Source: Patescibacteria group bacterium (GTDB taxonomy: Bacteria > Patescibacteriota > Patescibacteriia > UBA9934 > GWF2-40-263). From it: a stretch of 64,000 nucleotides of DNA. Positions within the stretch are counted from its first letter, which is position 1, and every line of letters begins with the position of its first letter. The notes under the pieces are model-generated. The model worked only from the letters and a program-made list of their open reading frames with translations, was not told where the DNA came from and did no database searches. Positions 7,663 through 50,926 of this stretch are shown here, piece after piece. A program made the position numbers and the translations under genes. The stretch is from contig JBAZTR010000002.1 in the NCBI GenBank assembly GCA_041661745.1, forward strand, positions 4,368 through 68,367. Direction: 5' to 3'.

Positions 7663-8736
7663 CTATGGCGCAAGCGTTAAATTATTCATCATCATTTCAA
7701 AAGTCGTCAAATAATCAACACTGGCTTTTACCGTGTTTTGATAACTCACAACAATCACCCTGGTCCCAGACTCAATGTAAACAGTCATCTGGTCTTCGGC
7801 TTCTAAAGTTGAATAGCCTTGTTTGGTTTCGCCGGAGGTAACTTTAACCTCAGAACTAAGATTTGTTCCACTGAACCAGTCGGCTAAGCTTACTCCGACC
7901 TCTTTACTTTCAAGGCCAATGGTTATGGTTTCACCGCTTGGGACAACAAAGGTTGTGCTTCCATCAGTTCCTTCACGAACTGTCCAGGCTTGGGGATATA
8001 AAATCTCGAAAACCCCCATCTTTTGATAAAGCGTAACAACCGAGGAATCACGTAGATGCGCCGGGTCTGGAGAATTCGGATCATAACCATTAAAAACTTC
8101 GTTACCGTCAAGAAAGCCATCGCTATCAGTATCAGGTTTTTTGGAACTTGTTTTATAAAGAATTTCTTCAGCGTCGGTCAAACCGTCGCTGTCAGTGTCG
8201 CGACCGGGCTGCGAATTATTGGGAAACGGCGAAGCTGAGTTTGTCGACGGTTGATTTGTTGCCTGATTAGTATTGGTATTGGTTGCCGGCTGATTAGTGG
8301 GTTTGTTTACATTAACTGAATTATTAGTTGTTGTGTTAACTAGAGGTGTAGTTGTTACTGGTTTAAAAACAAAATAAAGATAAACTCCGGAACCAACTAA
8401 AACTACCAGCAAAACTACCCCAGCAATTAAAAGAGCTCGGGTAGTTTTTGACATTCCCTTCTTTTTTCCCCTCACCCCTGTCCCCTCTCCCTTAGGGAGA
8501 GGGGTTGGGGAGAGGGGTCGAGGCGCTGGGACAAGCGGCGGCGGCAAAGCGGCTGGGCTAGCGGCGGCCGCTGGCTTCATTGTCGGCGGATTTACCCGAG
8601 CCGCCAAGCCGCGAAATTTTTCCGGCATGGAAAAAACCTGCGGCGCGCCTGCGGAAGCCTTGGCAGTTGGCGGAACCTCGATCTTTTTTTGTCCGGCATC
8701 TTCAAACATACTTTTTAAAATTTTCAATTTGTCCAA
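7663..8736 (-). CDS. hypothetical single-pass membrane protein with a Pro-rich cytoplasmic N-terminus, extracellular Ca-binding DxDxDG (thrombospondin-3-like) repeats and an unknown C-terminal domain; paralog 1 of 3
   Basis: Shares the MFED start with the next gene. TM helix LLIAGVVLLVVLVGSGVYLYFVF, then DTDSDGLTDAEE and DTDSDGFLDGNEV repeats. Contains an in-frame copy of the hairpin repeat at 8471-8517. Confidence 0.6.
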   Translation of the reverse strand: MDKLKILKSMFEDAGQKKIEVPPTAKASAGAPQVFSMPEKFRGLAARVNPPTMKPAAAASPAALPPPLVPAPRPLSPTPLPKGEGTGVRGKKKGMSKTTRALLIAGVVLLVVLVGSGVYLYFVFKPVTTTPLVNTTTNNSVNVNKPTNQPATNTNTNQATNQPSTNSASPFPNNSQPGRDTDSDGLTDAEEILYKTSSKKPDTDSDGFLDGNEVFNGYDPNSPDPAHLRDSSVVTLYQKMGVFEILYPQAWTVREGTDGSTTFVVPSGETITIGLESKEVGVSLADWFSGTNLSSEVKVTSGETKQGYSTLEAEDQMTVYIESGTRVIVVSYQNTVKASVDYLTTFEMMMNNLTLAP

Positions 8737-8743
8737 TTATCAA

Positions 8744-9361
8744 CTAGTTATTTCCCGGCAGTTCAAACAATTTTCCGGCCCCGTTGGGATTATAACCGCT
8801 TTTGACTTCGGCTCCATCAAGATAACTGTCGCCGTCAGTATCAGGATTAAGCGGATCGGTTTTATAGACATCAACTTCCTCTCGGTCAAACAGTCCGTCG
8901 TCGTCAGTATCGGTTTTTTGGGCACTGGTACCAAGCTCGGCTTCGCGGGCGTCGGTTAATCCATCTTTATCAGTATCGACTTCCACAACGGTTTCTGGCA
9001 CAACTTCCTCTACGAGAGTCTCTTCCTCCTCAACATTTGTAGTTTGCTCCACAGCCGCGTTGTTGGCAATATTGGTTAAACTTTCGGTAACCGGCTCGCG
9101 GCTGCCTAAAATCATTGTCGACAACCATGCTCCGACGGCAATTACTATCACGGCGCCCATAATAATAATGATTGGTTTCCAACCTGAACTATGATTAATC
9201 ACCGGCGCTGTTTGCGGCGGCATTGGGGTTGGCGCGGAAACGAGCGGTGGCACTGAAGGGGTGGCGACCGGTCGTTGCGGCGGACGAAAAGGTGGCGGAA
9301 CATCCTCGGGTTTATCGGTTTCGGCAAAAATATCCGGTGGCTGTTTTATATCTTCGAACAT
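8744..9361 (-). CDS. hypothetical single-pass membrane protein with C-terminal Ca-binding DxDxDG repeats; paralog 2 of 3
   Basis: MFEDIKQ start, Pro-rich segment, one TM helix. DTDKDGLTDAREAE, DTDDDGLFD and DTDGDSYLDGAEVKSGYNPNGAGKL repeats. Confidence 0.6.
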   Translation of the reverse strand: MFEDIKQPPDIFAETDKPEDVPPPFRPPQRPVATPSVPPLVSAPTPMPPQTAPVINHSSGWKPIIIIMGAVIVIAVGAWLSTMILGSREPVTESLTNIANNAAVEQTTNVEEEETLVEEVVPETVVEVDTDKDGLTDAREAELGTSAQKTDTDDDGLFDREEVDVYKTDPLNPDTDGDSYLDGAEVKSGYNPNGAGKLFELPGNN

Positions 9362-9396: not shown

Positions 9397-10296
9397 TTAT
9401 AATTTTCCCGGACCCAAAGGATTATAACCACTTTCCAATTCGTCTTTGTCGCTATAACCGTCACCGTCAGTATCAACTTTAGACGGATCAGTGTGATAAA
9501 GATTATATTCGTCGGCATCGGATAAACCATCGCCATCCGAATCAAGACTGGTATCACTCGAACCAAGCGAAGCTTCTAACTCAGCATTCAAGTCATCGTG
9601 ATCACGATCGCCGGAACCAACCGTATCAAGACAAGTCCCTTGGTCACCACTGTCGGATAAAGCCGCGCAGCGATCAGGATCTTCGCTGGCTACTGCTTCG
9701 GCTAAATTTTTCTGCTGATCGCAAACTGTCTGATCAACTCCAGTACCAGAACAGCCTTTGGTTTTAGCGATTTCTTCAGACAAAGTACTGACACAACGTT
9801 CTCTGGTTATATCGCCGGAAATTTGCTCACACCGAGAAATATCTAAATCCCGTAAAGCTAAGGCGCGATAAACTGAATCAGCACATTCTTTTTGAGTTTC
9901 GTTATCATCAATTAAATCGCAAGCAGCCGCTTGGTAACTTTCCCGGGCAACTTTCCACACACAAGAAATCATAGCTTGGCCTTCCAGTTCAGTACAAACT
10001 TCGGCCACCCCATTATTTTGGGCGGCCGCCTCAATCAAAGTAGCCCGGCAGGCCTCGGGGTTTCTTTCTTCGTCACACGTGGACAAGGCTTGGTTTAATT
10101 CTTGTTCAGCTAAAAGCGCGGCGGCCTCATTTTGCGTCGCTTGGTTTCGGTTTTGTACTAACCAACTTACACCCATAATTATCGCGGCAATTAAAACCAC
10201 GGCCACGGTAATAATTATGATTAGCTTCCAAGTTACTTTTGGCTTACTCGGCATTTCGTAACTAGGTGGGGTTTGGTAATAGGAGGGGGTATCCAT
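9397..10296 (-). CDS. hypothetical single-pass membrane protein with a Cys-rich ectodomain and C-terminal Ca-binding DxDxDG repeats; paralog 3 of 3
   Basis: TM helix LIIIITVAVVLIAAIIMGV. Multiple Cys in a helical region. Ends DSDGDGLSDADEYNLYHTDPSKVDTDGDGYSDKDELESGYNPLGPGKL, the same terminal motif as paralog 2. Confidence 0.6.
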   Translation of the reverse strand: MDTPSYYQTPPSYEMPSKPKVTWKLIIIITVAVVLIAAIIMGVSWLVQNRNQATQNEAAALLAEQELNQALSTCDEERNPEACRATLIEAAAQNNGVAEVCTELEGQAMISCVWKVARESYQAAACDLIDDNETQKECADSVYRALALRDLDISRCEQISGDITRERCVSTLSEEIAKTKGCSGTGVDQTVCDQQKNLAEAVASEDPDRCAALSDSGDQGTCLDTVGSGDRDHDDLNAELEASLGSSDTSLDSDGDGLSDADEYNLYHTDPSKVDTDGDGYSDKDELESGYNPLGPGKL

Positions 10297-10304
10297 AGAA
10301 TATT

Positions 10305-13300
10305 TTACGGGAAGAACATGTCTTCAATTGATGACGAATCGCAATCATCGCCACAGGTATTAGCTACACAAGTCCCAGCTGTAGTTCCCCACACACCACT
10401 AGTTACACCGCAATAAAGGCTGGCCGACGACGAACCAACAACACATAGTCTATTTGTGTAGTCATAAAGAACTGGTGGCAAAATAAGTCTACGTGATCCA
10501 CCATCACAAATTCCCAAATCATCAGCGGCCATGGCAGAATAACCAGGGCCAAACAAAGAACAATCGCAAGTAGCTGTGTCAGTACAACTGGAAGCAAGTT
10601 TAATAACACGCGAGGCTGGATTAGTGGCACCTCTAACGCAATAAATATCCTCAAAAGCTGTTTCGTCACAAGACTCGCCACCGTCTATTATACTATCGCC
10701 GCAGACCGGCAAATAAGCCGACAGTGTATCGGTAGAACAAGTGCCATCACAAGTATTTGCCTTGCAGACTCCAGCATCGGCCCCAGAGCCGCACATTGCC
10801 TCGGACCACGAAGTTGACGTATAGCAAACCGCGCTATCAAAATCATAACCACCGGTTGTTCCGCCACTACAAATGCCCAGAATGTTTCCATAATTTTCGG
10901 CATAACCGGCGTCACAACCAGTATCTGATCCAAGAGCATAAATATCTCGCAGGCTTGGATCTTCATCAAAGTTAACGCAATATTTTGGAAAATCTCCCCC
11001 GTCACAATATTCACCGTCGGCCGTATCAATTCCACCATCACCGCAACCGGAATCGCAGGCATCACCGATTCCGTCACTGTCAGCATCGGCCTGACTAACA
11101 TTAACAACACTCGGACAATTATCTTCCACGTCAACAATTCCATCACCATCAGTATCAGCTAAAGTTTCGCCGCCGCCGACCGAGCCGACCGAGCCGGCCG
11201 CCCCCTCACAAACATCACCAATTTCGTTTAAGTTTGCGTCTGCTTGATCTTCGTTAGCATCGTTCGGACAATTATCATTAAAATCAAGAACGCCGTCACC
11301 GTCTGAATCTATAGTCGAAGACGCCCCGGTTCCAACACTAGCCGAGCTGGCCGGACAATAGGAAAGTTTAATATCACTAATATTCACGGTTCCTTCGCCG
11401 CTGAAAGAAATACGGAAAGGAATATTCCATTCGTTCTCTGTGTCACAGCCGAAGCCCTCGGGAAATGGAATAACAACATCATCGCCATCAAAAACTTCAT
11501 CCGAAGTCAAAGTGGTTTCTCCGGCAAAGTCAGTGGTGAAAGTCATGGTCAAACCAATAATACTGTCGGCGATTTGTTGATACATTTCGTCGAGGTCATC
11601 GGAGGAGCTGGCACTAAAAGCATATTCGATATCATCAGTTACCGAACAGTCGGCGACATTGCTATAAGCAGTTTCGGACGGATCGTTCTCGAGACAAGAA
11701 TCAGACGACCAATGGGCCATTTTACCAATAAGCGCATCAGTGGTCATGAGTGCTGCGGTATAAATTTCAATACCGTTAGCAATCGCCGCATTTCTAATGT
11801 CTTGAATTTCTTCGTAATATTTATAAGCCGAGGTATAGGTACTGCTATCAATAAGAACGTTTGGATCCCCATCACTTAAAAGAATAATGATTTGATCATC
11901 AGCCTCACTATCCTCAAGTATATTTGCCGCGCACTGCAAACCGGCCGATAAAGGTGTACTACCTCCAGTTCTTGTTGAATAACTTTCCACACTGTATTCA
12001 CCATAAATCAACTGTGATTCGTTTGTTGTTAAATCGCTATCAATCCAAGCCAATCCAGTCGTTCCGGCGGAATTGGTTATGCAAGCATCGGCCAAAGTGA
12101 TTGCTCCATCGTTATTATGATCCGAGCCATCTTCTAAAGTATTGGTAAAGCTAACCAAACCAATTTGCAAATTACTATAATCATCAAAGGCATTAAATAG
12201 TTCTTGAATAGCTGACGAGATTGAATTAACCGTTGCTTCAATCTTTGTCGAAGACATGCTTCCCGATAAATCAGTCACAAAAACAATATCAACATCCAGC
12301 GGAATAATATTAGTTGTGTCGATATCGGCCGTCAGTGATGTGCCGACCGAACAGGCTGGTAAGAAAATAGAAGCCGTGTCAGGACTATCTCCCGAATTAT
12401 AACTGTAAAGATCAGCCGAGGTTTCTTCAGTTGCTCCGGCCAATTCGGTTTGAATGGAAACCGAAGTCGTTGAATAGGAAAAAGGACAGGTGGCACTGCA
12501 AGTGGCCCCGCAGTCGGCAACCATACAAGTTCCACCGCTAGAATCAATTCCGCAGTCATAGCCGGAAGAGCCAGTCCCGGCGACACATGGTGCGCCGTTG
12601 TAATCATAATAACCGTCTAATGTACAAATAAAATCGCCACAGACAGACGCTTGACGCCAGCCGCCATTACAAACACCGACCTGTTCCAAACAGTGGTAAT
12701 TATTATCCGTATCGCAGTCGGCGTCAGTTTCACAAGCCGAAGTCGAGATTCCGCGCTCGTCGGGATTTGTCCCAGCCAAATAACAATACTTTGGCAAATC
12801 CGAACCATCACAGAATTCACCGGTTTGCATTACCCCGTCACCACAATAAGAACCGGACATCGTAGTGTATTGGCAATTAACATTACAATAATTACAGGTG
12901 CCACTATAATCAGGTGAACAAACCGTGCCGTTTTCCAATCCATCGTCGCAAGTTTCATGGCCGGCATAAACCGCATCATCACCACAAATATTAAATTTAC
13001 ATTCCGCAGTACAGTCGTCGGTATTATCGTCGTTGCCATCATCACATTCTTCATCACCTTCAACACTGCCGTTGCCGCAAATTTGCGTGCCACCCAAACA
13101 AGCACTCCAGGTGTTCCAACCACAAGCGCCGCCAGTGCCATCGTCACAAGTTCGATAACGAGAAAGTTGATATTCAAAAGACGTCTTGCAGTCGCCGCCT
13201 CCGGTACAATCAGCGTCTTCACTACATTCTTCATTGTCACGATCGCCGCCATCACAAACCGCAGAAATCGGACAAGCAGCATAAACTGTGCCGCAATCGG

Positions 13301-16300
13301 TTTCATCACAATCAGCATCGGTTGTACAGGTCGCATAATTATCAGCTGCGCCGCACAAAGCCCCATTCCATGCTTCACTATTACCATCACATGATTCATC
13401 GCTATTCACTTCCCCATCGCCGCAAGACGGCCCGGGATAAGAGCAGTCGTAGGCGCAAGTGTGTGCCGCGTCAGCATCGTAAATGCCGTTAGCGTCCGCG
13501 CAAGAATTAATTGTTGACCAACTGGAAGTATCGGCGTGGACATCGGTCCAATTGGCAGTTGAACCGCAATCACATTCTTCGCCGCCGGCTAAATAACCAT
13601 CACCGCAATACCAGGCGTTATCCAAACCACAGTCACTGTCACAATATCCGTATTCTCCATTATTTGTTCCGTCATCGCAAGTTTCACCAGGATCAAGAAC
13701 ACCATTGCCACATTCATAAGGTGAACAAGAGCCACCAGCTGCTTCGGCTTCGGATTCATCCATGTAATCAGAACAATCAGAAAGACACGGAGCGTCCATT
13801 GTCCCATTGTTATCATCGATGCCGTCGTCGTCGCTATCGTAGGTACAAGAAATTGTGTCGGTATTACCTAATTCACAAATTTCACTTAAACCACGCACGC
13901 CATCACCGCAACGTGTCGAGGTTCCCAAATTTGAACCATTACAGAACTCACTATCAATTCTAAACCCATTTGCCACGTCTTCCGCATTGGCAAACTCCGC
14001 ATAAACAGTGGCATTATCAGTTGAATCGTCATCAATCGGATAAGCCCAATAATCACCAGGGGAATCTTCAAGTTGCACTGAAAGAATATATTCCTCACCG
14101 CCAATACTTTGATAAAGATAGGTATTAGAATCTTCGCTGCAAGAAAAAGTGCCGGCCGTTGAATCCCAACAATAAGTTTGATCAGTATAACCGGGACAAT
14201 AGAATTCGTTTAGAGGATCAGTAGGAATAGCTGTACCAAGGGCATTACCCAACTCAGCGTTCCATGATGGCCAAGTACTGGTGGAGAAAGCGGAAAGAAA
14301 TGTCCCGCTTTGAATTTCTGGCACTTCGGCCATACAGGTTTCATCATCGCCCGGACAATCATCATCCTCACTGCAATCCTGGCCTTTTGTTACCGAGCAG
14401 TGACGATTTTCTTCGCCGTAAGCGGCCAAGTCAGAGGCAATTTTACGAGCATCGGTTAAGCGTACCATGTTGCGACGCAGTTTTCCTTTTTCCGCATCAC
14501 AGAAAGCCGAAGCGTCGCTTAATTCACTAATACAATCCAAATTAGAAACACACGAAACATAATCACCTTCGGCGTTAACCGCGTAATCTCCGTCTGAAAC
14601 ACAGACATTAATGTCACTTACTTCAAGATCGCCAGAACTATTAAGACCGGCATTAAATTTCCAGTTCTCTAAAACCTGTTCAACAATGGCATCAGTTTCT
14701 TCACCAGCTCCTTCGTTATAAGAAATTACATAAATATTCGGATAATTGGTGACACTTGAAGAACTGTAATTAGCCGCTGAAACATAATAAGTATTACCGT
14801 CCTGAACCGCCTCATAGCCGTCCACTGTCGTTTCACTAGGTGAACCGGAAAAACCTTGAACATCAAACCAGGCCGATGGTGAAAGATAGTCCTCGTTGGA
14901 GAAAACCCGGACACCGATAGCGTCGCTGGTGCCATCAATTAAAAAGAGTCGCTCTTGAAGAATGTCCACGCCGCTCGGGGTAACCGGCGGTTCAACTTCG
15001 ATAAGCTCTGGTAAATTATCGCTTCCCTCTTGGTCGCGACAATAATAAAAGGAGAAATTAGAATAATCTTCAAGATACGGGAAAGCGGCGGTCATCGGAT
15101 TTGGCCACAAGGTTTCGCACATGTTCGCCTCCAGTTCAGCCGAACCGGTTACAATTGTGCCGTCAGAAACCACTGTGGCCGAGGCCGAGGCTAATTCCTC
15201 ACCGTTCACTCCCGAGGAGGTGACGGTGGTTGTTACATCATCGACATTGATCACTTCAATTACTGTCTCGGCCGACTCGTCGCCCCAACCCCAAGTCCAT
15301 GAGTAGTCATCGATTTCTTGAATTTCTTCGGCCGAAGCACCATCTAAAGTATAAGACGCGGCCAAAAGTGTGTGTTCTTCACCGGATTCGGTAAACAAGT
15401 ACGCACTCGGCTCGTCAAAAATATCCTTCAATTCGGTTTTACCAGTATCTTCAACGGAAACCATTTCCAAAGCGCAAATTTCCGTACCAACTTCAAAATT
15501 AACAATTTCACCATCGTAAATCGCCACGCCGTTGGTATTAACAACCCCTTCAACAATATTATCTAGTGGGTCACCGGCTGACTCGCCTAAAGCCACCAAA
15601 TTATAAGTTCCACTTTCAAGAGCCTGAGAAAAATCAAGATCAATTCTTGAACCATCACCAAGCTCGGATAAAGTATAAGAAACCGGAACAAGACATGCAC
15701 CAAACGTCTCCGCGTGAACCCCAAGAATTCTCAAAACGTTTTGAGCCAGCCATCCCCAAGCCCGGGAAAATAAATTATCACCCGAATCGTTGCGAGCAAT
15801 CAGCAAAGTAGTATAAGTGGTTGGACAGTTTGTTTCGTCGACAGCAATAGCAGTTGGTCCGGTGCCGATAGAAACAAATTCCAAATACAAAGCTCGTGAA
15901 TCATTTAGTCCGCCAGCGTCCATGGTTTGATCAAAATCCATGTAAACTGAAGTATTGCGACACACACCAGTTGACCCGGCAACCGGGTAATAGTCAGTAA
16001 TGGCCGGGCGTTTAAAACAACAAGCGGCATCGCCACATCCATAAGTTATACCACTGGTGTCACAGTTATAATCAGAGACACATGAACATTCCAGAGTGAA
16101 AGTCGCTGACCCCTCAGCCTCACTTGAACCCTCGGTCGCCACAATAGATGTAATGGCAATATTTTCACCGGAAGCCAAAACTTCTTGTGGTGCTTCTTCG
16201 GAAATTTCAGCAATGGTAAATGGGGCAACGCTGGTCACCCCGCTCGCTTCACACTCCTCACCAGCCTCGGTTTCTAAATCAAGGTCACCGCAAATTGAAC

Positions 16301-19300
16301 CATAATCTTCGTCCGATCCTTCACTCAAGCAAAGAGATGAACAACCGTCGTCATCGGTGGTATTGCCATCATCACAATCTTCGCCGGTTCCGATTTCACC
16401 ATCGCCACAAGCTGAAGGAATAGAGTAAGACGATGACGAACCTTCGTTTAGGCAAGACGACGAACACCCATCGCCATCGGTGGTGTTGCCGTCATCGCAA
16501 TCTTCGCCGTGTTCCGGGTCACTGCCATTGCCGCAGACACCATAAAAATTATCAATCGTTTCAGAACCTTCATTCAGACAATTGGCTGAGCAGTTATAAG
16601 CGGCTTTATCTTCACCGTAATCACACTCTTCCCCGCCAATCATATTGCTGTGAGCCACGAGACCGTCACCACAATCATATCCCAGGGATGAAGCCCCTTC
16701 GTTCAAACAAATAGACGAACAACCGTCATTGTTTGAAGTATTACCTAATTCGTCGCATTCCTCACCGATTCCTACTGCGCCATCACCGCAAACCGAAGGA
16801 GTACTGTAACTTCCACCGGAACCCAAACGAAGACAAGAAGAAGAACAGCCTTCCGTACCATCACAATCCTCCCCAAAGTCAATTTCACCATCACCACAAA
16901 CAGCTATCGGAGTTTCGGTTCCAATATGCAAACAATCTAAAGAACAACCATCGGCTAAATTATTAGAAATCATGATTGCCCCGCCACCAACCAAGTCGGC
17001 AATATTAGCCGTTGGCAATTCATCAGTTTCATCAATGGCCACCCAGGTTTCCCAGGTGTAGCCAGCGGCTATTAGTCGTTGGCCTTCGGCTGAACAGGCA
17101 TCGGGTGAGCCGTACGGCACAGCCGTAAAACGTTGAATTGTCCCAACCCGAGTGGCTGTGGCTTCGTTTGGTTCAACTTCTACTCGATCGACAGTACAAG
17201 CCTCAGCTTTAGTCGTAAAGGTCCATGACAAATCACCGTACCAAGCCAGGTCACCGGCCGCTTCACTTAACAACGAACCGCTCTCTGATTCAGCTTCACC
17301 AGAAATGATCACGCGATAAGAAGTATCAATCAACAAATTTCCGGGCGGAACAATTGTCAGTATGTCAGTTTCGTCATCGTAACTCGAGGCGACTGAACTA
17401 ATTTCTACTAGTTCATCAGGGGCACAACCTGGATCCTCGCAACTAAACAATCTAACTATTTGTTCACCACCACTATCCGTTCCGGAAAAAGTTCCGGCGG
17501 CCATTGGAATATTAAAAGTTGCGCCGATTTCCGCATCCAGGCAAGCTTCGGTACAACTCGGCCAGTAATCAGTAATTTTTGGATCAGTAAAGCTGATGGT
17601 TAAATATCCGTCATCACTGACACTGTAACCATCGGGCTGAGCATTAATCGCAACCGGGCCATCGGTGCCGGTTTCTTCCTCGGCTATAACCATCGCCCCA
17701 CAGCCGACAACACTACCAACACTTGCCTTACTCGAATCGCTGGAAGAAAAATTCCAGGTGTAAGGTGAACAGTCTAAAACCGTGCACTGATATTCCGAAC
17801 TGGTCGGCGCAGCACTATAAGCAATTTCCTCGTTTTGTATGTTTGAAGTCTTTTCGCCTGGCGAAACAATAACTCCACCAATTTCACAAGCGTCTCCAGA
17901 AGCCGCAGTTTCAAATTCCCAAATAACGTCTTCAAGCATTACTAAACCTTCGATACTTTGTATTGTTCCGACCTCACCACCATAAACGGTCACGCGATAT
18001 CGAGTATCGGCGGCCCAATCAGACGCGGGTATCCAGGTAAAACCACTTTCATTATAAGAAGTCGGCGAACTTTCCATTTCCACAGCCGCGGTGTCCGAAC
18101 AGGTTTTATCAGTACACTGCTCTACCAAAAAGCCGGCAGTTGAATATGAAAGCGCGTCCATGTCTTCGGTGAAACTGACACTTAAAGCCGCGTTAGAACA
18201 AATCTTTGTTCCGCCATCCCAACCTTCCCAAGGTGTCGGGGAAACCCATGTTTCATCACACTCAATGCGAACATCTGGCGCTTCAGGAATATCACCGGTG
18301 GAAAAATAATAGGCGTAATGTGAAACAGTCTCAGGGTCAACGCATTCCGTTGCTGAACAAGCCCCACTAGCACAACAAGTTTCACCCGAGCCGCAAGAAA
18401 AATCAACGTTACAAACGCCAACAGTAAAATTAACTTTGTTGGATTTCTGAGCATCACTGTCAATTACAATAACCGGACCACTGTTTGTGTCAGCAGGAAC
18501 AACCACGCCGGTTGTTTCACCAATTGCTCCACTCGTCCAATCATCAGTTGTGGCTGTTTGATCATTGAAAAAAGAAATCGAGCCGACCGTGGTACCAAAC
18601 CCCTCACCATATAAAGTAACCGCTGTGCCGACCGGACCGGAATTGGGAACAATGGCACAAAATCCGGGGGCCGCTTCGCCAGTAGTCACAACAAAGTTAA
18701 CTGCTTCGGATTTTAAACCATCTTCGGCCCGCTGTATGTATAAATCATGAGTAATCGCATCAACCGAATTGGTGTTGCTGTATTTCGCGGGAACTTTAAT
18801 AATAATTTCAGTATCACTCCAAAAACTGTCTTCGCATTCATCGGGAAAATTTGTGTCGCCTAAAGCTTCGTAATCTGTGCTTTGGCTAACAAACCGAACC
18901 GTTCCTTCGCTGGTACCAAAACCAGAACCATAAATGGTTAAATATTGGCCAATCGGGCCTTCTTCAGGATCAACCTGACTAATTACCGGAAGTTCCTCCT
19001 CAGTAACCGAAGTGGTAACAAATTGGAGTTCGTTAGAGCCCTCACGAGCATCGCCACTGCCGGTAAACAATTGAATATCGAAAATTCCGGCATCCAATAA
19101 CGGCGACACGGCCCCGAAAGATGTTGTTGACCAATCGCTGTAACTGGCCGCTTCATAAGAATCAAAATAAAGCGTAGCGTCAGTGCTTGATTCCCCAAGG
19201 TTAATACCGTGAAGTGTAACGGCAGAGCCAGCCTCGCCGCTTTCCGGATCAATAGAACAAAGGCCGGGGCGAACTGTTTCATTAACTTCAAAGTCGCTGA

Positions 19301-20870
19301 TATAAGAACCGTTTTCGTCGTTGGTTTGATCGTATTTGCCATCGGCAGCAATTAATTTAATCGGGCCGCTTTCGGCTTCGTCTTTTAATTGAATAATCAC
19401 TTGGCTATCACTCCAAGCTTCCACGCATTCCTCGCTGGAGTAAGCCGAATGACTAACTTCGGTCGTTGTCCCTAGAAAGACAACACTGCCCGGCGCTTCA
19501 CCAAAGCCTTGGCCAGAAATAGTAATTAAGTTACCAGGAGCGCCATCACCGGGCGAGACGGCTTCGATTTCCACTTCCTCTTCGCAAACACCATCAACAC
19601 ATGATCCGGAAGAGCAATCAGAGCTGTCAGTACATTCTTGGTTTTCGCAAGCGCCGCAATAAGAATCCGCCGATGAACTGCCACCACAATCAATCCCACT
19701 TTCACTTTCGTCTTGTACACCATTGTGGCACGAAGCGGCCCGTAACATCACGCTAATTTCCGCATCAACATCGTTACCGGCGCAATCAGAACCCTCGGCC
19801 AAAATACTATGGTCATCGTTGGTAAAATATCCGGCCGTGTCCCATTCGCTGTCAAAATAACCATCACCTTCGATGTCATTAACTGTGCTATTAATTCCGG
19901 TATCAATATAGAAATCAACCGAGGCTACCCCAGTATCATCAACCGCATATGCTTGAAGCATAGCGGCTTCGTCAGCGTAAACTGACTCGCCATCATCAGG
20001 CGCCGTAATTTCAAAAACCGTTGGCGCGGCTAAATCAAACCCCGTGCCCGTGGTAAAAGTAAATTCACACGGGTAAGCGGTTGAGCATTGAAGATCATAA
20101 CCACTGGAGCTTTGCAAAGCCGAACTGATGGTAATGTTATAGGTCGTTTCCGCTTCAAAACAATTAACTGAATAATCATCTTCGGCAAAACAGATTGCCT
20201 CAGGAGTAAAAGTAAACGAAGTGGCGCTGGCCGTGGTTGAGCGTCCAACCGCGGCAAAAGTGCCAGCCACTTCTTCCCCACCCTTGCTGATAGAAATGCC
20301 GGTGCCATCAACAACATCTTCCGTGGCTACGCGCTGACTGAAAATAAAACGCAACTCCAAATTTTGCAAACTTGAAGCGCAATCGGTATTAACACTGGTT
20401 AAAACAAAGGAATGGGCGTAATCAGGAATATCGCCACCGCCGCCCCCGCCGCCAACTTCAGTCCCGACGCCGCCACCAATTGAGCTAGTTAGTCTTGATA
20501 AAACAAATTGAGCGATGGTAAAAGAAGAAAGCATTATCAAAAGTCCGATAAGGCCGTTCTTTAAAACTTTTTTAGCTTTGGCTATTTTTTCTTCTTCACC
20601 ACCGGCCGTGACCCACAAAAAGCCAGCGTACAAAACAACAATTACCGCAACAATTCCCAAAAAGCCCAAAAAGGTTCGAATCGCTCGGGCAATCATTAAA
20701 ACCAGACTGCCGCTAGCCAAACCGGACGAGGCGGCAAAAGTTTCGCTATCGCCGCCAAACATTTGATTAGCGGTGAGAGTTTCGGCCAGAGCCGGAGTAA
20801 CAAACAAAAGGCCAAGGGCCACGCCTAATCCGACAATTATTAATAAAGATAAGAGACGATTTTTTTTCAC
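10305..20870 (-). CDS. giant (3521-aa) secreted or surface protein with a TrbC/VirB2-type pilin-like N-terminal membrane anchor, then IPT/TIG domains, tandem myxococcal Cys-rich repeats, a vWA domain and thrombospondin type-3 Ca-binding repeats
   Basis: Signal peptide ending ALA, then two TM helices around YAGFLWVTAGGEEEKIAKAKKVL and a poly-Gly linker. IPT-like GxGFG segments (ISGQGFGEAPGSVVF, TIYGSGFGTSEGTVRF, TLYGEGFGTTVGSISF). At least 10 CGDG-x-GE-CDDGN-x-DGCS-x-C repeats. vWA MIDAS DIVFVTDLSGSMS...SDGDP. DSDGDGVLDFNDNCPNDANEDQAD and DTDGDGIVDVEDNCP thrombospondin-3 repeats. Starts 4 nt downstream of the preceding gene. Confidence 0.8.
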   Translation of the reverse strand: MKKNRLLSLLIIVGLGVALGLLFVTPALAETLTANQMFGGDSETFAASSGLASGSLVLMIARAIRTFLGFLGIVAVIVVLYAGFLWVTAGGEEEKIAKAKKVLKNGLIGLLIMLSSFTIAQFVLSRLTSSIGGGVGTEVGGGGGGGDIPDYAHSFVLTSVNTDCASSLQNLELRFIFSQRVATEDVVDGTGISISKGGEEVAGTFAAVGRSTTASATSFTFTPEAICFAEDDYSVNCFEAETTYNITISSALQSSSGYDLQCSTAYPCEFTFTTGTGFDLAAPTVFEITAPDDGESVYADEAAMLQAYAVDDTGVASVDFYIDTGINSTVNDIEGDGYFDSEWDTAGYFTNDDHSILAEGSDCAGNDVDAEISVMLRAASCHNGVQDESESGIDCGGSSSADSYCGACENQECTDSSDCSSGSCVDGVCEEEVEIEAVSPGDGAPGNLITISGQGFGEAPGSVVFLGTTTEVSHSAYSSEECVEAWSDSQVIIQLKDEAESGPIKLIAADGKYDQTNDENGSYISDFEVNETVRPGLCSIDPESGEAGSAVTLHGINLGESSTDATLYFDSYEAASYSDWSTTSFGAVSPLLDAGIFDIQLFTGSGDAREGSNELQFVTTSVTEEELPVISQVDPEEGPIGQYLTIYGSGFGTSEGTVRFVSQSTDYEALGDTNFPDECEDSFWSDTEIIIKVPAKYSNTNSVDAITHDLYIQRAEDGLKSEAVNFVVTTGEAAPGFCAIVPNSGPVGTAVTLYGEGFGTTVGSISFFNDQTATTDDWTSGAIGETTGVVVPADTNSGPVIVIDSDAQKSNKVNFTVGVCNVDFSCGSGETCCASGACSATECVDPETVSHYAYYFSTGDIPEAPDVRIECDETWVSPTPWEGWDGGTKICSNAALSVSFTEDMDALSYSTAGFLVEQCTDKTCSDTAAVEMESSPTSYNESGFTWIPASDWAADTRYRVTVYGGEVGTIQSIEGLVMLEDVIWEFETAASGDACEIGGVIVSPGEKTSNIQNEEIAYSAAPTSSEYQCTVLDCSPYTWNFSSSDSSKASVGSVVGCGAMVIAEEETGTDGPVAINAQPDGYSVSDDGYLTISFTDPKITDYWPSCTEACLDAEIGATFNIPMAAGTFSGTDSGGEQIVRLFSCEDPGCAPDELVEISSVASSYDDETDILTIVPPGNLLIDTSYRVIISGEAESESGSLLSEAAGDLAWYGDLSWTFTTKAEACTVDRVEVEPNEATATRVGTIQRFTAVPYGSPDACSAEGQRLIAAGYTWETWVAIDETDELPTANIADLVGGGAIMISNNLADGCSLDCLHIGTETPIAVCGDGEIDFGEDCDGTEGCSSSCLRLGSGGSYSTPSVCGDGAVGIGEECDELGNTSNNDGCSSICLNEGASSLGYDCGDGLVAHSNMIGGEECDYGEDKAAYNCSANCLNEGSETIDNFYGVCGNGSDPEHGEDCDDGNTTDGDGCSSSCLNEGSSSSYSIPSACGDGEIGTGEDCDDGNTTDDDGCSSLCLSEGSDEDYGSICGDLDLETEAGEECEASGVTSVAPFTIAEISEEAPQEVLASGENIAITSIVATEGSSEAEGSATFTLECSCVSDYNCDTSGITYGCGDAACCFKRPAITDYYPVAGSTGVCRNTSVYMDFDQTMDAGGLNDSRALYLEFVSIGTGPTAIAVDETNCPTTYTTLLIARNDSGDNLFSRAWGWLAQNVLRILGVHAETFGACLVPVSYTLSELGDGSRIDLDFSQALESGTYNLVALGESAGDPLDNIVEGVVNTNGVAIYDGEIVNFEVGTEICALEMVSVEDTGKTELKDIFDEPSAYLFTESGEEHTLLAASYTLDGASAEEIQEIDDYSWTWGWGDESAETVIEVINVDDVTTTVTSSGVNGEELASASATVVSDGTIVTGSAELEANMCETLWPNPMTAAFPYLEDYSNFSFYYCRDQEGSDNLPELIEVEPPVTPSGVDILQERLFLIDGTSDAIGVRVFSNEDYLSPSAWFDVQGFSGSPSETTVDGYEAVQDGNTYYVSAANYSSSSVTNYPNIYVISYNEGAGEETDAIVEQVLENWKFNAGLNSSGDLEVSDINVCVSDGDYAVNAEGDYVSCVSNLDCISELSDASAFCDAEKGKLRRNMVRLTDARKIASDLAAYGEENRHCSVTKGQDCSEDDDCPGDDETCMAEVPEIQSGTFLSAFSTSTWPSWNAELGNALGTAIPTDPLNEFYCPGYTDQTYCWDSTAGTFSCSEDSNTYLYQSIGGEEYILSVQLEDSPGDYWAYPIDDDSTDNATVYAEFANAEDVANGFRIDSEFCNGSNLGTSTRCGDGVRGLSEICELGNTDTISCTYDSDDDGIDDNNGTMDAPCLSDCSDYMDESEAEAAGGSCSPYECGNGVLDPGETCDDGTNNGEYGYCDSDCGLDNAWYCGDGYLAGGEECDCGSTANWTDVHADTSSWSTINSCADANGIYDADAAHTCAYDCSYPGPSCGDGEVNSDESCDGNSEAWNGALCGAADNYATCTTDADCDETDCGTVYAACPISAVCDGGDRDNEECSEDADCTGGGDCKTSFEYQLSRYRTCDDGTGGACGWNTWSACLGGTQICGNGSVEGDEECDDGNDDNTDDCTAECKFNICGDDAVYAGHETCDDGLENGTVCSPDYSGTCNYCNVNCQYTTMSGSYCGDGVMQTGEFCDGSDLPKYCYLAGTNPDERGISTSACETDADCDTDNNYHCLEQVGVCNGGWRQASVCGDFICTLDGYYDYNGAPCVAGTGSSGYDCGIDSSGGTCMVADCGATCSATCPFSYSTTSVSIQTELAGATEETSADLYSYNSGDSPDTASIFLPACSVGTSLTADIDTTNIIPLDVDIVFVTDLSGSMSSTKIEATVNSISSAIQELFNAFDDYSNLQIGLVSFTNTLEDGSDHNNDGAITLADACITNSAGTTGLAWIDSDLTTNESQLIYGEYSVESYSTRTGGSTPLSAGLQCAANILEDSEADDQIIILLSDGDPNVLIDSSTYTSAYKYYEEIQDIRNAAIANGIEIYTAALMTTDALIGKMAHWSSDSCLENDPSETAYSNVADCSVTDDIEYAFSASSSDDLDEMYQQIADSIIGLTMTFTTDFAGETTLTSDEVFDGDDVVIPFPEGFGCDTENEWNIPFRISFSGEGTVNISDIKLSYCPASSASVGTGASSTIDSDGDGVLDFNDNCPNDANEDQADANLNEIGDVCEGAAGSVGSVGGGETLADTDGDGIVDVEDNCPSVVNVSQADADSDGIGDACDSGCGDGGIDTADGEYCDGGDFPKYCVNFDEDPSLRDIYALGSDTGCDAGYAENYGNILGICSGGTTGGYDFDSAVCYTSTSWSEAMCGSGADAGVCKANTCDGTCSTDTLSAYLPVCGDSIIDGGESCDETAFEDIYCVRGATNPASRVIKLASSCTDTATCDCSLFGPGYSAMAADDLGICDGGSRRLILPPVLYDYTNRLCVVGSSSASLYCGVTSGVWGTTAGTCVANTCGDDCDSSSIEDMFFP

Positions 20871-35535: not shown

Positions 35536-37059
35536 ATGTTGGAAACCGTCCGAACTTTTGAAGATCTGGAACAGCTCATTAAAAATAATTACATGAAGCC
35601 GGATTTAGAATTGGTCGAACGCGCCTACAGGCTAGCCGAAAAGGCCCACCAAGGTGAAATTCGCTTTTCCGGCCACCCTTTTATTACCCATCCCTTGGCC
35701 GTGGCTTACAAATTGGCGGAAATGGGTTTCCACACCAACATGGTTGTAGCCGGACTTCTGCACGACGTGGTCGAGGACACCGAGGTCACTCTTGATGATA
35801 TAAAAAAAGAATTCGGCGACGACGTGGCTGGTTTAGTAGAAGGGGTTACTAAACTGAAAAAAATAAAATATCAGGGTGTGGAACGATATGTCGAAAACAT
35901 GCGGCGCATGTTTATGGCCATGGCTTCTGATGTCAGAGTAATCTTTATAAAATTCGCCGATCGTTTACACAATCTTCAAACCCTTTACGCTCGACCCGGC
36001 CATAAGCAGGAAAGAATTGCTCGGGAAACCTTGGAAATTTATGCGCCCATTGCCAATCGTTTGGGGATGGGGGAAATAAAAGGCGAGTTAGAAGATTTGG
36101 CCTTCAAATATCTTTTCCCGAAAGAATATGATTGGATGGTTCAGATTATGGAAACCAAGGTGCGCGAAAAAGGCGCACAAATTTCCCGTCTGATTGACCG
36201 AGCCAGCAAAGTTTTGGGTGAAGCAAAAATTGAAACAAATCAAATTCACGGTCGGGTCAAGCGTCTTTATAGTTTATATAAAAAACTGCAGCGTTATAAT
36301 AATGACTTGGCCAAAATTCACGATTTGGTGGCGGTGCGCGTTATTGTAAAAGATGTCGAGGATTGTTACGCTGCCCTGGGCCTTGTTCATCAAGAATGGC
36401 ATCCGGTTCCAAACCGCATTAAAGACTATATTGCTCAACCAAAACCCAACGGTTATCGCTCTTTACACACAACGGTTTTTTGTGGCGATGGTGAAACAGC
36501 CGAATTCCAAATCCGTACCGAAGAAATGCACGAATTTGCCGAATATGGTATTGCCGCCCACTGGCGTTATAAAGAAACCGGTTTTTCACCGCCAAAAAAT
36601 CTGCGTTGGATGGAGGAAATGGTGGTAATTCAAAAGGCTCTAGAAGACAAAAAAGACTTTTTTGAACAAATGGAGGTTTTAAAAATTGATGTTTTTAAAG
36701 ACCATATTTTTGTTTTCACCCCGCAGGGCGATGTGATCGATTTACCAGAGGGGGCCACCCCGGTTGACTTTGCTTACGCTGTCCACACCGATGTCGGTCA
36801 CAAATGTGTCGCTGCTAAGGTCAACGATCAACTAGTTAATCTTGATTCAACCTTAAATTCCAACGATGTTGTAGAAATAATCACTGACAAAAATCGCCGC
36901 GGCCCTAACCCCGATTGGCTGAAATTCGTCAAAACCAATCACGCTCGGGAATTGGTTAGAGAGGCGGCAAAAAAAAACATGAGGTCGTGGCTTTCAGCCA
37001 TGATTTCCAAACCTGCTAATCCTGCCAAAAAAGAAAAGAAAGGCAAGAAAACAAAATAG
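35536..37059 (+). CDS. relA: RelA/SpoT-family (p)ppGpp synthetase/hydrolase, short form (HD, synthetase and TGS domains; no ACT domain)
   Basis: HD motif LLHDVVEDT, synthetase domain RVKRLYSLYKKL...VAVRVIV, TGS domain IFVFTPQGDVIDLPEGATPVDFAYAVHTDVGHKCVAAKVNDQLV. Confidence 0.85.
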   Translation: MLETVRTFEDLEQLIKNNYMKPDLELVERAYRLAEKAHQGEIRFSGHPFITHPLAVAYKLAEMGFHTNMVVAGLLHDVVEDTEVTLDDIKKEFGDDVAGLVEGVTKLKKIKYQGVERYVENMRRMFMAMASDVRVIFIKFADRLHNLQTLYARPGHKQERIARETLEIYAPIANRLGMGEIKGELEDLAFKYLFPKEYDWMVQIMETKVREKGAQISRLIDRASKVLGEAKIETNQIHGRVKRLYSLYKKLQRYNNDLAKIHDLVAVRVIVKDVEDCYAALGLVHQEWHPVPNRIKDYIAQPKPNGYRSLHTTVFCGDGETAEFQIRTEEMHEFAEYGIAAHWRYKETGFSPPKNLRWMEEMVVIQKALEDKKDFFEQMEVLKIDVFKDHIFVFTPQGDVIDLPEGATPVDFAYAVHTDVGHKCVAAKVNDQLVNLDSTLNSNDVVEIITDKNRRGPNPDWLKFVKTNHARELVREAAKKNMRSWLSAMISKPANPAKKEKKGKKTK

Positions 37060-37095
37060 GGAACAAAAATTTTTGTTCCCTATTTTGTTTTTATT
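37058..37095. terminator. bidirectional rho-independent terminator between convergent relA and parB
   Basis: Perfect palindrome AGGGAACAAAAATTTTTGTTCCCT flanked by A-runs and T-runs on both sides. Confidence 0.7.
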
Positions 37096-37975
37096 ATATT
37101 TCGGATAATCTGGCCAACAATTCCATTAAGTCTTCTTTTGAATAAAAATGCATGGTGATTGTCCCCTTCCCGACACGTTCACGAATTTCTACCTTGGTTC
37201 CCAGAATCTCTTGCAACCTTTTTTCGTGCGCCACTAAATTAGGATCAACCCGACGACCAAACACTGACTTGGGGCGATGTCCGGCCACCGTGTGCTCGGC
37301 GGAACGAACTGTGACCTTACCGGTTAACATGGCCTGAAAAAGTTCTTTTTGTTTAACTGGGTCATTTTCCGAGAGCAACGTGCGTGCATGACTCTTGGTA
37401 ATCTTGTCCTCTTTAAGAGCGTCTTGAATGTATTCAGGTAATTCTAGCAAACGCAGAGTATTGGCCACGGCCGGTCGACTTTTTCCAACTCTAACTGCTG
37501 CTTCTTCTTGGGTAAAATTAAATTCATCCATCAAGGTTCGATAAGCCAAAGCTTCTTCCAATGGATTAAGATCAGCTCGTTGCAAGTTTTCAATCAAAGC
37601 CCACTCAATTTTTTGTTGTTTTGTGGCATCACGAACAATAACCGGCACGGTTTTTAAACCAAGGGCTTTGGCCGCTCGCCAACGTCGTTCCCCGGCAATC
37701 AATTCATACTGATTATCACAAAAAGTCACCACCAGTGGTTGAAGAATACCGTGCTCTTTAATTGAGCTGATCAAATCATCTAAATCAGCCGCGGCAAAAT
37801 GCCGACGTGGCTGATGCGGATTGGGAACAATGTCGCCAACCGGAATTTCTTTAATCTCTTGATGGCCGACAACCGAGGTAACAACCTCGGAAACTTTTTT
37901 GGTGGGAATGAGCGAACCGAGGCCCCTCCCAAGCACTGGTTTTGTAATCATAACTTTATAAATCACCGTTTTCAC
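37094..37975 (-). CDS. parB: chromosome partitioning protein ParB/Spo0J
   Basis: ParB box GERRWRAAKALGLKTVPVIVRD and an HTH region. Confidence 0.9.
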   Translation of the reverse strand: MKTVIYKVMITKPVLGRGLGSLIPTKKVSEVVTSVVGHQEIKEIPVGDIVPNPHQPRRHFAAADLDDLISSIKEHGILQPLVVTFCDNQYELIAGERRWRAAKALGLKTVPVIVRDATKQQKIEWALIENLQRADLNPLEEALAYRTLMDEFNFTQEEAAVRVGKSRPAVANTLRLLELPEYIQDALKEDKITKSHARTLLSENDPVKQKELFQAMLTGKVTVRSAEHTVAGHRPKSVFGRRVDPNLVAHEKRLQEILGTKVEIRERVGKGTITMHFYSKEDLMELLARLSEI

Positions 37976-43575: not shown

Positions 43576-44334
43576 TTATTCATTCCTAGTAAGCACGATT
43601 TCTTCAAAAGCTTCAGGTTGTTGAACTTTAATTATTCTTTGTTTTACTAATTCAAGCAGGGCTAAAAAACTCACCACCACTTCAGCCCGCGATTTGGCCG
43701 CGCCAACCACATCGGAAAACATAAACCTGGCCCGTTTCATTATTGCCTCGTGGATGTCGCGAATACGCTCCTCAACCGAGGCGACTCGTTCCAGCGAAGC
43801 TTGGCGTAAAGCGAAAAAAGGTTCCAGACGTTTAATCAGACCACGGAAAGCTTCGGCCAAAACATTTGTTGTCACGTTTTCCGGCGGACGAAAACCAACT
43901 TCAACCGGCAACGGCACATATGGCCGGGCAAACAACACTGCCCCGCCCAAATACATATTTTCCAATTTGCCGGCCACGTCCACAAAAGTGCGATAAAGTC
44001 TAAGCTGGGCGGCTAAATTGCTTTGCTCAACTGCCTCTTCAAGTGGGACAGGCAAAATGGAATTAGATTTAATCAGCAATAAACGCGCGGCCACGGTTAA
44101 AAAATCTGCCAGCTCTTCGGCTGGAACATTATTTTCGTTTATAAACTTAAGATAATCGCCAGTAACTTGGGCCAGCGACACCTCGGAAATCGGCAACTCC
44201 TCCTTTTCAATTAAAGTAAGCAGCAAATCAAGCGGACCGGAGAATTTTTCTATTGAAACTTCGTAAGACACAATTTTATGGACGCAGTCTTTGAACATCG
44301 CGAGGGAAAAGAGTGGCTTCTTTGATGTTATCAA
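43576..44334 (-). CDS. scpA: segregation and condensation protein A (kleisin)
   Basis: FSGPLDLLLTLIEKEEL N-terminal motif. The 5' end overlaps the 3' end of the upstream aaRS gene, so the true start may be the internal Met. Confidence 0.85.
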   Translation of the reverse strand: MITSKKPLFSLAMFKDCVHKIVSYEVSIEKFSGPLDLLLTLIEKEELPISEVSLAQVTGDYLKFINENNVPAEELADFLTVAARLLLIKSNSILPVPLEEAVEQSNLAAQLRLYRTFVDVAGKLENMYLGGAVLFARPYVPLPVEVGFRPPENVTTNVLAEAFRGLIKRLEPFFALRQASLERVASVEERIRDIHEAIMKRARFMFSDVVGAAKSRAEVVVSFLALLELVKQRIIKVQQPEAFEEIVLTRNE

Positions 44335-45586: not shown

Positions 45587-45600
45587 ATAAAATTTATTCT

Positions 45601-45637
45601 CCCTCTCCTTACGAAGGAGAGGGTTGGGGTGAGGTTA
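45601..45637. repeat. hairpin repeat element, copy 1 (CCCTCTCC-TTACGAA-GGAGAGGG-TTGGGGTGAGGTTA); its last TTA is the stop codon of asnS
   Basis: Perfect 8-bp stem with a 7-nt loop. Lies between two co-directional genes. Confidence 0.7.
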
Positions 45638-46936: not shown

Positions 46937-47084
46937 AATGCACTGGTTAGTTTAGCGTAATTATTGGATTTGGTGAAGTGGAAAACCAGGCGGAAAACAA
47001 GAGGAAAAATAGCGAAAATTAGACAAAAAAATCGACCTGTTTAAAGCGGGTCGATTTTTAAAGTCTTGACCCTCATCAAAAGTA

Positions 47085-47122
47085 TTGACAAAAACAAAAA
47101 AATGGCTTAATCTAGCCATGGC
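47085..47122 (+). promoter_or_regulatory. sigma70 promoter (TTGACA, 17-nt spacer, TAATCT) with a perfect 10-bp palindrome AGCCATGGCT immediately downstream of the -10 (putative operator)
   Basis: Consensus -35 at 47085-47090 and -10 at 47108-47113. The palindrome at 47113-47122 overlaps the expected +1. AGGAG RBS at 47181-47185, 5 nt before the GTG start. Confidence 0.5.
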
Positions 47123-47190
47123 TTTTCGGAGTGGTTCCGTTAGCCAATTCCCCGCGGCGATCACCCACTGACCGCCCATAAGGAGCTCAC

Positions 47191-47616: not shown

Positions 47617-47636
47617 TCGTTTCGCTTCATTTCCTC

Positions 47637-47675
47637 CGTCGTCATCCCTCAGGGACTGACGACTTTTATTTTTAC
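47637..47675 (+). terminator. rho-independent terminator of the GC-rich cassette
   Basis: GTCGTCA-TCCCTCAGGGAC-TGACGAC hairpin followed by TTTTATTTTT. Overlaps the last codons of recO on the other strand. Confidence 0.65.
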
Positions 47676-49379: not shown

Positions 49380-49407
49380 ACAAAAAATGAAAAATATTTT
49401 TTATTTT

Positions 49408-49444
49408 CCCTCTCCTTACGAAGGAGAGGGTTAGGGTGAGGTTA
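49408..49444. repeat. hairpin repeat element, copy 2; its terminal TTA is the stop codon of map
   Basis: CCCTCTCCTTACGAAGGAGAGGGTTAGGGTGAGGTTA. Confidence 0.7.
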
Positions 49445-50925: not shown

Positions 50926-50926
50926 T

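Follow-up and report, generated by a model that had tools for sequence, protein, structure and literature searches.

A BoxC-type repeat within a membrane protein gene of a Patescibacteria bacterium is probably a tolerated in-frame insertion

How does a copy of a palindromic intergenic repeat come to lie in frame within a coding sequence, just ahead of a membrane helix? The question is raised by a 64,000-nt stretch of DNA from a Patescibacteria group bacterium (contig JBAZTR010000002.1, positions 4,368 to 68,367), referred to here at its full length as the window, in which three copies of such a repeat lie between genes and a fourth lies within the open reading frame (ORF) at 7663–8736 on the minus strand. 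An earlier, sequence-only reading of the window had called such an insertion rare and had taken it as a sign either of recent mobility of the element or of an origin of the repeat in low-complexity coding sequence of this kind. The evidence assembled here indicates that the in-gene copy is quite probably a tolerated passenger, a repeat of the BoxC type inserted in a linker that is predicted to be disordered.

The in-gene element, a double-sided BoxC-type triplex motif as judged by its sequence pattern (from its blocks, a motif scanner, and its E. coli match), occupies positions 8468–8517 on the minus strand and sits within the gene at 7663–8709 (minus strand). The proposal of a fourth repeat copy in frame within a coding sequence is thus borne out at the site given for it, 8461–8520, but the element proper is shorter, at 50 nt. 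On the plus strand it reads CCCCTCACCCC-TGT-CCCCTCTCCC-TTA-GGGAGAGGGG-TT-GGGGAGAGGGG, a symmetric, G/C-rich palindrome whose four blocks lie at 8468–8478, 8482–8491, 8495–8504, and 8507–8517, and on the coding strand it reads CCCCTCTCCCC-AA-CCCCTCTCCC-TAA-GGGAGAGGGG-ACA-GGGGTGAGGGG; the order C-block, G-block, G-block is found on either strand. The earlier description as a hairpin repeat captures the hairpin but not the whole motif, since each copy adds a third G-rich block after the hairpin. As RNA the in-gene element has a folding energy of −46.8 kcal/mol (z = −4.25; ViennaRNA, which models the hairpin only), and each strand contains four G-runs. Three of the six reading frames are open across the element, including one of the three on the coding strand. 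Read in the frame of the gene, the 17 codons over the element (8467–8517, minus strand) would yield PLSPTPLPKGEGTGVRG, a Pro-rich and then Gly-rich stretch forming residues 64–80 of a protein of 348 residues. This peptide is followed by a positive patch, KKKGMSK, and then by the predicted membrane helix, which starts seven residues past the peptide, in agreement with the original placement of a Pro/Gly-rich linker just N-terminal to the helix.

The host gene, as defined by the ORF, its orthologues, and an AlphaFold model, encodes a single-pass membrane protein. Its actual start within the ORF is the ATG at 8709 (MFEDAGQKK...), and the 348-residue product is identical to NCBI MFA6131808.1, [quoted passage not shown]. 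The protein comprises a disordered Pro-rich N-terminal tail, the membrane helix, an Asn/Thr-rich spacer, bacterial TSP3 repeats, and a C-terminal alpha/beta domain. In the AlphaFold model, for which 22 orthologues were the input, residues 1–84 are disordered, with predicted local distance difference test (pLDDT) values mostly below 50; the element-encoded residues 64–80 have values of ∼40–52 and no secondary structure, whereas the transmembrane helix is predicted at residues 88–114 (8368–8448, minus strand, preceded by the KKKGMSK patch) with pLDDT ∼90 and the C-terminal domain is confident. The positive patch ahead of the helix suggests that the N-terminal tail is cytoplasmic.

The in-gene copy is, by its blocks, a genuine member of the repeat family that occupies intergenic sites in the window. 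The pattern CCCTCTCC N3-9 GGAGAGGG N2-9 GGGNGAGG has five matches there, the in-gene copy being counted on both strands, and none in 100 dinucleotide-preserving shuffles of the window. The three intergenic copies are all on the plus strand: copy 1 (CCCTCTCCTT-ACG-AAGGAGAGGG-TT-GGGGTGAGG-TTA; 45600–45637) lies between two tandem class II aminoacyl-tRNA synthetase genes, copy 2 (CCCTCTCCTT-ACG-AAGGAGAGGG-TTA-GGGTGAGG-TTA; 49407–49444) directly after the methionine aminopeptidase gene, and copy 3 (50926–50971) between secY and adk. Their blocks are 8 nt long and their loops 7 and 3 nt, and RNA folding gives hairpins of 10–12 bp. In all three the TAA stop of the upstream minus-strand gene is the closing TTA of the third block (GGTGAGG-TTA), at 45635–45637 in copy 1, 49442–49444 for the methionine aminopeptidase stop, and 50969–50971 for the secY stop, and the same overlap is present at 2239–2241 of locus L001 and 9496–9498 of locus L134, two of the related loci described below. 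Across all loci examined, 11–12 of the 60 motifs that face a convergent ORF of at least 120 codons have a third block ending directly at the stop codon, where about 2 are expected at uniform positions. The synthetase paralogues flanking copy 1 (44276–45586 and 45635–46936; 436 and 433 residues, with tRNA-synt_2 and OB anticodon-binding domains) have only that copy between them. Copy 3 is adjoined by a terminator-like intrinsic hairpin with a T run (50899–50926, minus strand), and the presence of this separate canonical terminator indicates that the repeat is not itself the terminator at that site. In a scan for terminators and promoters, neither the in-gene copy nor copies 2 and 3 showed a T run after the hairpin, and identity as an intrinsic terminator was rejected.

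Beyond the window, the pattern and the alignments indicate that the in-gene element belongs to the known BoxC / PIT / TMECO family of intrastrand triplex repeats. Holder et al. (2015; PMC4666352) describe the TMECO motif, formerly the BoxC or PIT element, as a G/C-rich class II intrastrand triplex motif with the pattern 5'-CCCTCNCCC N3-6 GGGNGAGGG N3 GGGNGAGGG, list CCCTCTCCCTTGAGGGAGAGGGTTAGGGTGAGGGT among the E. coli copies, and cite the earlier BoxC and PIT work of the Bachellier/Hofnung and Hoyne/Maher groups; in E. coli K-12 they report 23 copies that are "always located intergenically", in either orientation and in some cases as inverted pairs (PMC4666352). The in-gene element fits this pattern as CCCTCTCCC-TAA-GGGAGAGGG-GACAG-GGGTGAGGG on the coding strand and equivalently on the other, with a second loop of 4–5 nt under the published pattern as against the published 3. 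All four window copies pass the mirror/triad rule (G·G:C, A·A:T or T·A:T triads) of a scanner that requires 8-nt blocks and tolerates no more than one mismatch in either the hairpin or that rule. A 59-nt segment containing the in-gene element matches 4227 of 5426 complete E. coli genomes by BLAST, the best matches having 97% query cover and 86–89% identity over 57 nt; no annotated feature lies beneath the ten best listed, and the blocks of the element align one by one with those of a double-sided copy in the lldD-trmL spacer of E. coli, trailing AAAA included.

The repeat is also dispersed in multiple copies, far above chance here, and is multi-copy in many unrelated contigs. Among the viral-contig matches listed for GGAGAGGG N2-5 GGGTGAGG, 102 of 155 have an exact CCCTCTCC at most 45 nt upstream; the matching contigs differ greatly in GC content, and several hold 3–5 copies. 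Conservation across such contigs is too wide for a lineage-specific repeat. Searches of Rfam with the whole window at gathering thresholds, and with the copies at permissive E-values, returned only tRNAs and sub-threshold miRNA-like hairpins, indicating that no known RNA family is involved. The intergenic location typical of BoxC elements is seen in the three window copies but not in the in-gene copy or in 11 other sites in related genomes; that location is, however, a described habit of the family and not its structural definition.

Whether the element is an acquisition or ancestral coding sequence can be judged from its distribution among homologues. Of 22 aligned orthologues, two alone have the Pro-rich/Gly-rich segment, namely P0001, from the window, and P0002, from locus L001. 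The segment is absent from 20 of the 21 orthologues aligned with the window protein and from ∼116 of 118 distinct homologues; among these ∼118 sequences, none but the two carriers has a Gly-rich motif ahead of the helix. The linker from MKP to KKKG is 35–36 residues long in the two carriers, as against 22–29 elsewhere. Alignment with the neighbouring paralogue 2 (8744–9361, minus strand), the check that had been suggested, likewise shows a protein without the segment, and a segment common to all orthologues and paralogues, the outcome that would have identified it as ancestral, is not observed, most orthologues being without it. The codons point in the same direction: the element has a codon-adaptation-like index of 0.344, compared with 0.666 for the host gene and 0.633 for the native linker beside it, and none of 2735 17-codon windows from the long ORFs of the window scores as low as the element, which uses codons as rare as CTC, AGG, and GGG (5%, 3%, and 10% of their synonymous sets). 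Such atypical codons fit DNA that would have been dictated by the repeat and not by coding history. Judged by these comparisons, the in-gene copy is a secondary acquisition, not ancestral coding sequence.

The acquisition may have occurred once or twice. A neighbour-joining tree computed with the linker excluded groups the window protein as (P0001,(P0003,P0004)) with 87% bootstrap and the other carrier as (P0002,P0005) with 82%, so that the two carriers are not sister lineages, and the single insertion in sister carriers that had been expected was rejected. Either the site was hit twice or an older insertion has decayed in three lineages.

Copies in related genomes were sampled in 85 Candidatus Uhrbacteria loci (designated by L numbers) plus the window, 1.4 Mb in all, the loci being centred on the three TSP3-repeat paralogues to which the host gene belongs. 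The scanner returns 31 matches, or 27 distinct sites, as against one match in shuffled sequence. Twelve of the 27 distinct sites (44%) lie in frame inside ORFs, each of which was checked individually, so that an in-frame insertion, previously described as rare, is not so in this lineage. The in-gene sites are in paralogue 1 (the window and L001), paralogue 2 (L001, L003, L143, and L181, the last with two copies), paralogue 3 (L202), pyruvate kinase (L134, encoding TSPGPSPLEGEG), an ABC-F ATPase (L154), YbeY (L202, as a loop insertion of 17 residues), and PrmC (L175); paralogue 2 is motif-free in the window genome and has in-frame copies in its orthologues from four other genomes. Two further candidates, L152 10290–10321 and L134 9497–9532, proved to be intergenic. 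In-gene copies occur in both orientations, and the product is always a Pro-rich and then Gly-rich stretch, or the reverse, in a variable loop or linker. Since roughly 90% of such a genome is typically coding, an in-gene share of 44% is lower than random insertion would give, a depletion compatible with purifying selection. This share is nevertheless far from the picture of an always intergenic element in E. coli.

Filled and empty sites can be compared directly in several cases. Neither the pyruvate kinase segment nor the YbeY segment occurs in any of the 24 other homologues aligned in each case, and the single ABC-F homologue among the sampled loci, that of L134, lacks the ABC-F segment. Loci L134 and L154, which are 85–90% identical in DNA sequence, are reciprocally filled and empty: the pyruvate kinase site is filled in L134 and the ABC-F site in L154. 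The filled sites are a net 15 and 21 nt longer, with signs of a small adjacent deletion, and show no target-site duplication relative to the empty ones. L001 itself has, 3 kb apart, an in-gene copy and an ftsA-ftsZ spacer copy that are closely alike: nearly all of the 18-nt non-structural loop is common to both, and the second spacer is the main difference. This match indicates copying or gene conversion between genic and intergenic sites. L001 contains seven motif sites in 14 kb, whereas the nearest motif-free relative, L002, has none in the 21-kb orthologous locus.

Some individual loci merit separate description. The L202 YbeY gene (11337–11852), from a genome of 57% GC, encodes 171 residues as against ∼143 elsewhere and has two Pro/Gly-rich insertions, NPPPKGGRGV and NPPAKGGRGGAAEWGQGGRGV, the second of which alone was caught by the scanner. 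In L175 (15444–15480 and 15552–15599), the ORF for PrmC, a release-factor methyltransferase, ends in ...ISPSP and a stop, the motif encoding the last four codons and the stop codon, and a second motif lies in frame ∼30 codons upstream. In-frame copies in long ORFs are also present on the low-GC, viral-classified contigs L026, L093, and L120, and in L093 (∼1940–2115) a 474-residue ORF contains tandem motif-derived repeats that encode PSPQPSPEGEGDFLSPQPSPEGEGDF....

The explanation that we favour, a tolerated passenger insertion, would operate as follows. Single-stranded DNA of BoxC repeats could fold into a purine-motif intrastrand triplex, and a copy may have arrived in the host gene by the copy-and-paste or gene-conversion process of the family, for which template switching during replication or repair and gene conversion between copies are candidate routes. 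Nothing points to a transposase, and the filled sites show insertion with small adjacent deletions; E. coli copies have likewise been tied to small local deletions and rearrangements and to genomic instability, the mechanism of spread being reported as unknown (PMC4666352). Read in the frame of the gene, the element would become a Pro-rich and then Gly-rich stretch of 17 residues, and the copy probably persists because it is in frame and sits in a tolerant segment, a location which suggests that the peptide is a passenger rather than a functional module. Insertions that break a frame or a folded domain would presumably be purged by selection, whereas those near 3' ends might truncate an ORF harmlessly, the terminal TTA supplying the stop codon, and would then look intergenic. 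The stop codons that abut third blocks and the end of the L175 PrmC gene support such a survival filter, with 3'-end truncation as the simplest reading of them.

Several observations weigh against a simple insertion of this kind. The gain over the nearest motif-free orthologues is just 6–7 residues, versus the full 17, which implies that the event was not a clean 50-nt insertion. At the site, KGG or GGRG residues occur together with weak inverted repeats of polypyrimidine/polypurine type in orthologues P0003, P0004, and P0005 (KGG in P0003 and P0004, and a weak TTCCTCC...GGAGGAA inverted repeat in P0005), so that an older insertion, since decayed, is possible. Protein searches, members of 90% clusters, exact-protein contig look-ups, and a metagenome scan yielded no empty-site allele of this species and, identical copies aside, nothing closer than 65% amino acid identity; the insertion is accordingly deduced from orthologues at or below 65% identity. 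Eight of the twelve in-gene copies lie in the Pro-rich N-terminal tails of the three paralogous membrane proteins, a count that is inflated because the sampled loci are centred on those genes, and this clustering could reflect target preference or local origin beyond mere tolerance.

Local origin, in which the palindrome was made in place from a Pro-rich (CCN-rich) tract by template switching or snap-back replication and its likeness to the intergenic copies is convergent, would account for that clustering, for the small length gain, and for the fact that the C-blocks encode Pro, Leu, and Ser as the native linker does. It does not readily explain why the in-gene segment is identical block for block to intergenic BoxC copies of E. 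coli (86–89% over 57 nt), why the L001 in-gene and intergenic copies have an 18-nt non-structural loop in common, or why copies are found in loops of pyruvate kinase, YbeY, and the ABC-F ATPase that are not Pro-rich. The codon usage of the element is moreover far outside the range of the genome whereas that of the adjacent native linker is normal. Local origin of the window copy is thus improbable. The companion suggestion that the repeat as such came from low-complexity coding sequence like this one is likewise unlikely, given the similar intergenic copies in more than 4,000 E. coli genomes and the non-Pro-rich enzyme loops.

A selected function in cis is another alternative: the DNA or RNA structure (hairpin, triplex, or G-quadruplex) would regulate expression, pause the ribosome before the helix, or serve as a programmed hot spot of instability. 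The very stable fold, the four G-runs per strand with their potential for a G-quadruplex, the recurrent site just upstream of the membrane helix in three paralogues, and the link between the family and local genomic instability drawn by Holder et al. (2015; PMC4666352) all speak for it. Yet the gene evidently does not need an element that nearly all of its homologues lack, its position varies among carriers (near codon 21 in L143, beside the helix in others) and so does its orientation, and no Rfam family reaches threshold. The TMECO single strand forms a triplex in vitro, but the E. coli copies have no in vivo triplex footprint and showed no promoter or terminator activity in published tests (PMC4666352). 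We consider such a function unlikely.

A much broader proposal starts from the spread of BoxC-type motifs over Proteobacteria, cyanobacteria, the Candidate Phyla Radiation (CPR), and phage-like contigs, and regards them as an active cross-phylum element that in CPR bacteria routinely colonises coding sequence and seeds new Pro/Gly-rich loops and linkers. The third strand of the element might then itself direct integration by pairing with polypurine/polypyrimidine tracts, for instance runs of Pro codons or the AAAAAGAAGGG tract that adjoins the window copy, which would amount to a protein-independent, structure-guided homing. As a whole this proposal is doubtful at present.

It is very improbable that the element is not coding at all, the ORF being over-extended, the true start being Met-85 (MSKTTRALL...), and the element lying in upstream untranslated or intergenic DNA. 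An ATG does lie 4 codons past the element, and elsewhere the family often abuts gene starts or stops. On the other side, the N-terminal 45 residues are conserved in the 22 orthologues, in which the MFED... and FSMPEKFRGLA N-terminal motif and the helix flank the element site in a single uninterrupted ORF; that both are always kept in one frame on either side of the site indicates that the region is coding. Paralogue 2 is built in the same way, with MFED..., a Pro-rich tail, a membrane helix, and TSP3 repeats, and independent gene callers annotate a product of 348 or 357 residues. An assembly or chimera artefact at a low-complexity palindrome is scarcely credible, since, although G/C-rich palindromes can cause mis-assembly of metagenomes, the identical protein is called on 5 contigs of different sources, one of 218 kb, the reading frame continues unbroken on both sides of the element, and an independent metagenome (L001) has an equivalent in-gene copy.

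The surroundings of the host gene are themselves conserved. The gene is syntenic in Candidatus Uhrbacteria, where the order of the locus is a giant surface protein, the three TSP3-repeat membrane proteins, ybeY, dgkA, ftsA, and ftsZ. In the window the giant protein corresponds to an ORF of 3521 residues at 10305–20870, Cys-rich and with Big/TIG/VWA/TSP3-type matches, directly upstream of the three paralogues, an arrangement kept in L002, L143, and L134. Elsewhere in the window, GC content peaks at 55% in 47001–48000, compared with ∼45.6% window-wide; the ORF at 47191–47616 (plus strand) in this region has no Pfam match and is overlapped by opposite-strand ORFs, and the region is possibly foreign or non-coding DNA. 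A perfect A/T-rich palindrome of 26 nt (AAAACAAAATAGGGAACAAAAATTTT and its complement; 37048–37091), between the convergent ORFs 35536–37059 (plus strand) and 37094–37975 (minus strand), is probably a bidirectional terminator.

The window's in-gene copy is itself explained and largely ordinary for its lineage; the element is a member of an already known family. Three decades after BoxC and triplex motifs became known, they still have neither an assigned function nor an explained mode of spread, and they have been regarded as confined to intergenic DNA, whereas in this CPR lineage nearly half of the sampled copies appear, by their reading frames, to lie inside genes, conserved enzymes included. 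No literature report was found of the BoxC/TMECO family in CPR bacteria or inside coding sequence, coverage being incomplete and the result an absence of evidence only. The lineage-wide colonisation of genes is a useful lead, and the pairs of filled and empty sites constitute a data set on how BoxC is copied, so far with no target-site duplication and with small adjacent deletions. For annotation, element-supplied TTA stops and Pro/Gly-rich "PxPxP-GxGxG" insertions are signatures of the repeat and not of the host protein families.

Among known repeat systems, the closest in behaviour are the Rickettsia palindromic elements (RPEs), described as "selfish DNA in protein-coding genes" and found in frame in many genes (PMC10969869). 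As with RPEs, a short palindromic family in a host with a reduced genome occupies both intergenic sites and, in frame, unrelated genes that include housekeeping genes, and the encoded peptide lies in segments compatible with the protein fold; the present case would be the second clear one in which short palindromic DNA reshapes the loops of proteins in reduced genomes. RPEs, however, are ∼100–150 bp long, restricted to Rickettsia, and unrelated in sequence, with a conserved peptide, whereas the element here is 35–50 bp, has polypyrimidine/polypurine arms and a third block, and belongs to a family found across phyla. Membership among RPEs was rejected on these grounds (50 nt and 17 residues versus a conserved peptide of ∼30–50 residues, with BoxC as the sequence relatives), the likeness being one of behaviour only.

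Repetitive extragenic palindromic (REP) sequences and bacterial interspersed mosaic elements (BIMEs), mobilised by REP-associated tyrosine transposases (RAYTs), are similarly short G/C-rich extragenic palindromes, which often lie just past stop codons and at times form inverted pairs like those of L170 and the L001 ftsA-ftsZ spacer. REP/RAYT membership was rejected because no GTAG or CGTC tag lies beside any of the four window copies and because a third mirror block does not characterise REP sequences; a RAYT gene was not identified in the window, which was not exhaustively searched for one. [quoted passage not shown]

The comparison with E. coli BoxC is the closest in sequence. The element differs in its host, a Candidatus Uhrbacteria-like member of the CPR/Patescibacteria with 45.6% GC, in blocks of 8–11 nt and a second loop of 2–5 nt rather than 3, and in that the window copy would lie inside a gene in an open frame, the 23 copies of K-12 being reported as intergenic. 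Opposite-orientation motif pairs within one spacer are found at L001 6517–6639, L001 14279–14409, and L170 13545–13656 and resemble the inverted type A/type B pairs of E. coli BoxC. Orthologous in-gene copies of the sister genomes L001 (2647–2682) and L003 (179–216) differ by a G-to-A substitution within their purine blocks (GGAGGGGG to GGAGGAGG) that is mirrored by a G-to-A change at the matching third-block position, a single case of apparent covariation that is consistent with the triad rule. With E. coli BoxC the element has in common the architecture of C-block, loop, G-block, loop, and G-block with its purine-motif triad rule, the double-sided forms, a dispersed, multi-copy distribution that is patchy among related genomes, the lack of transposase hallmarks, and small insertions or deletions around its copies.

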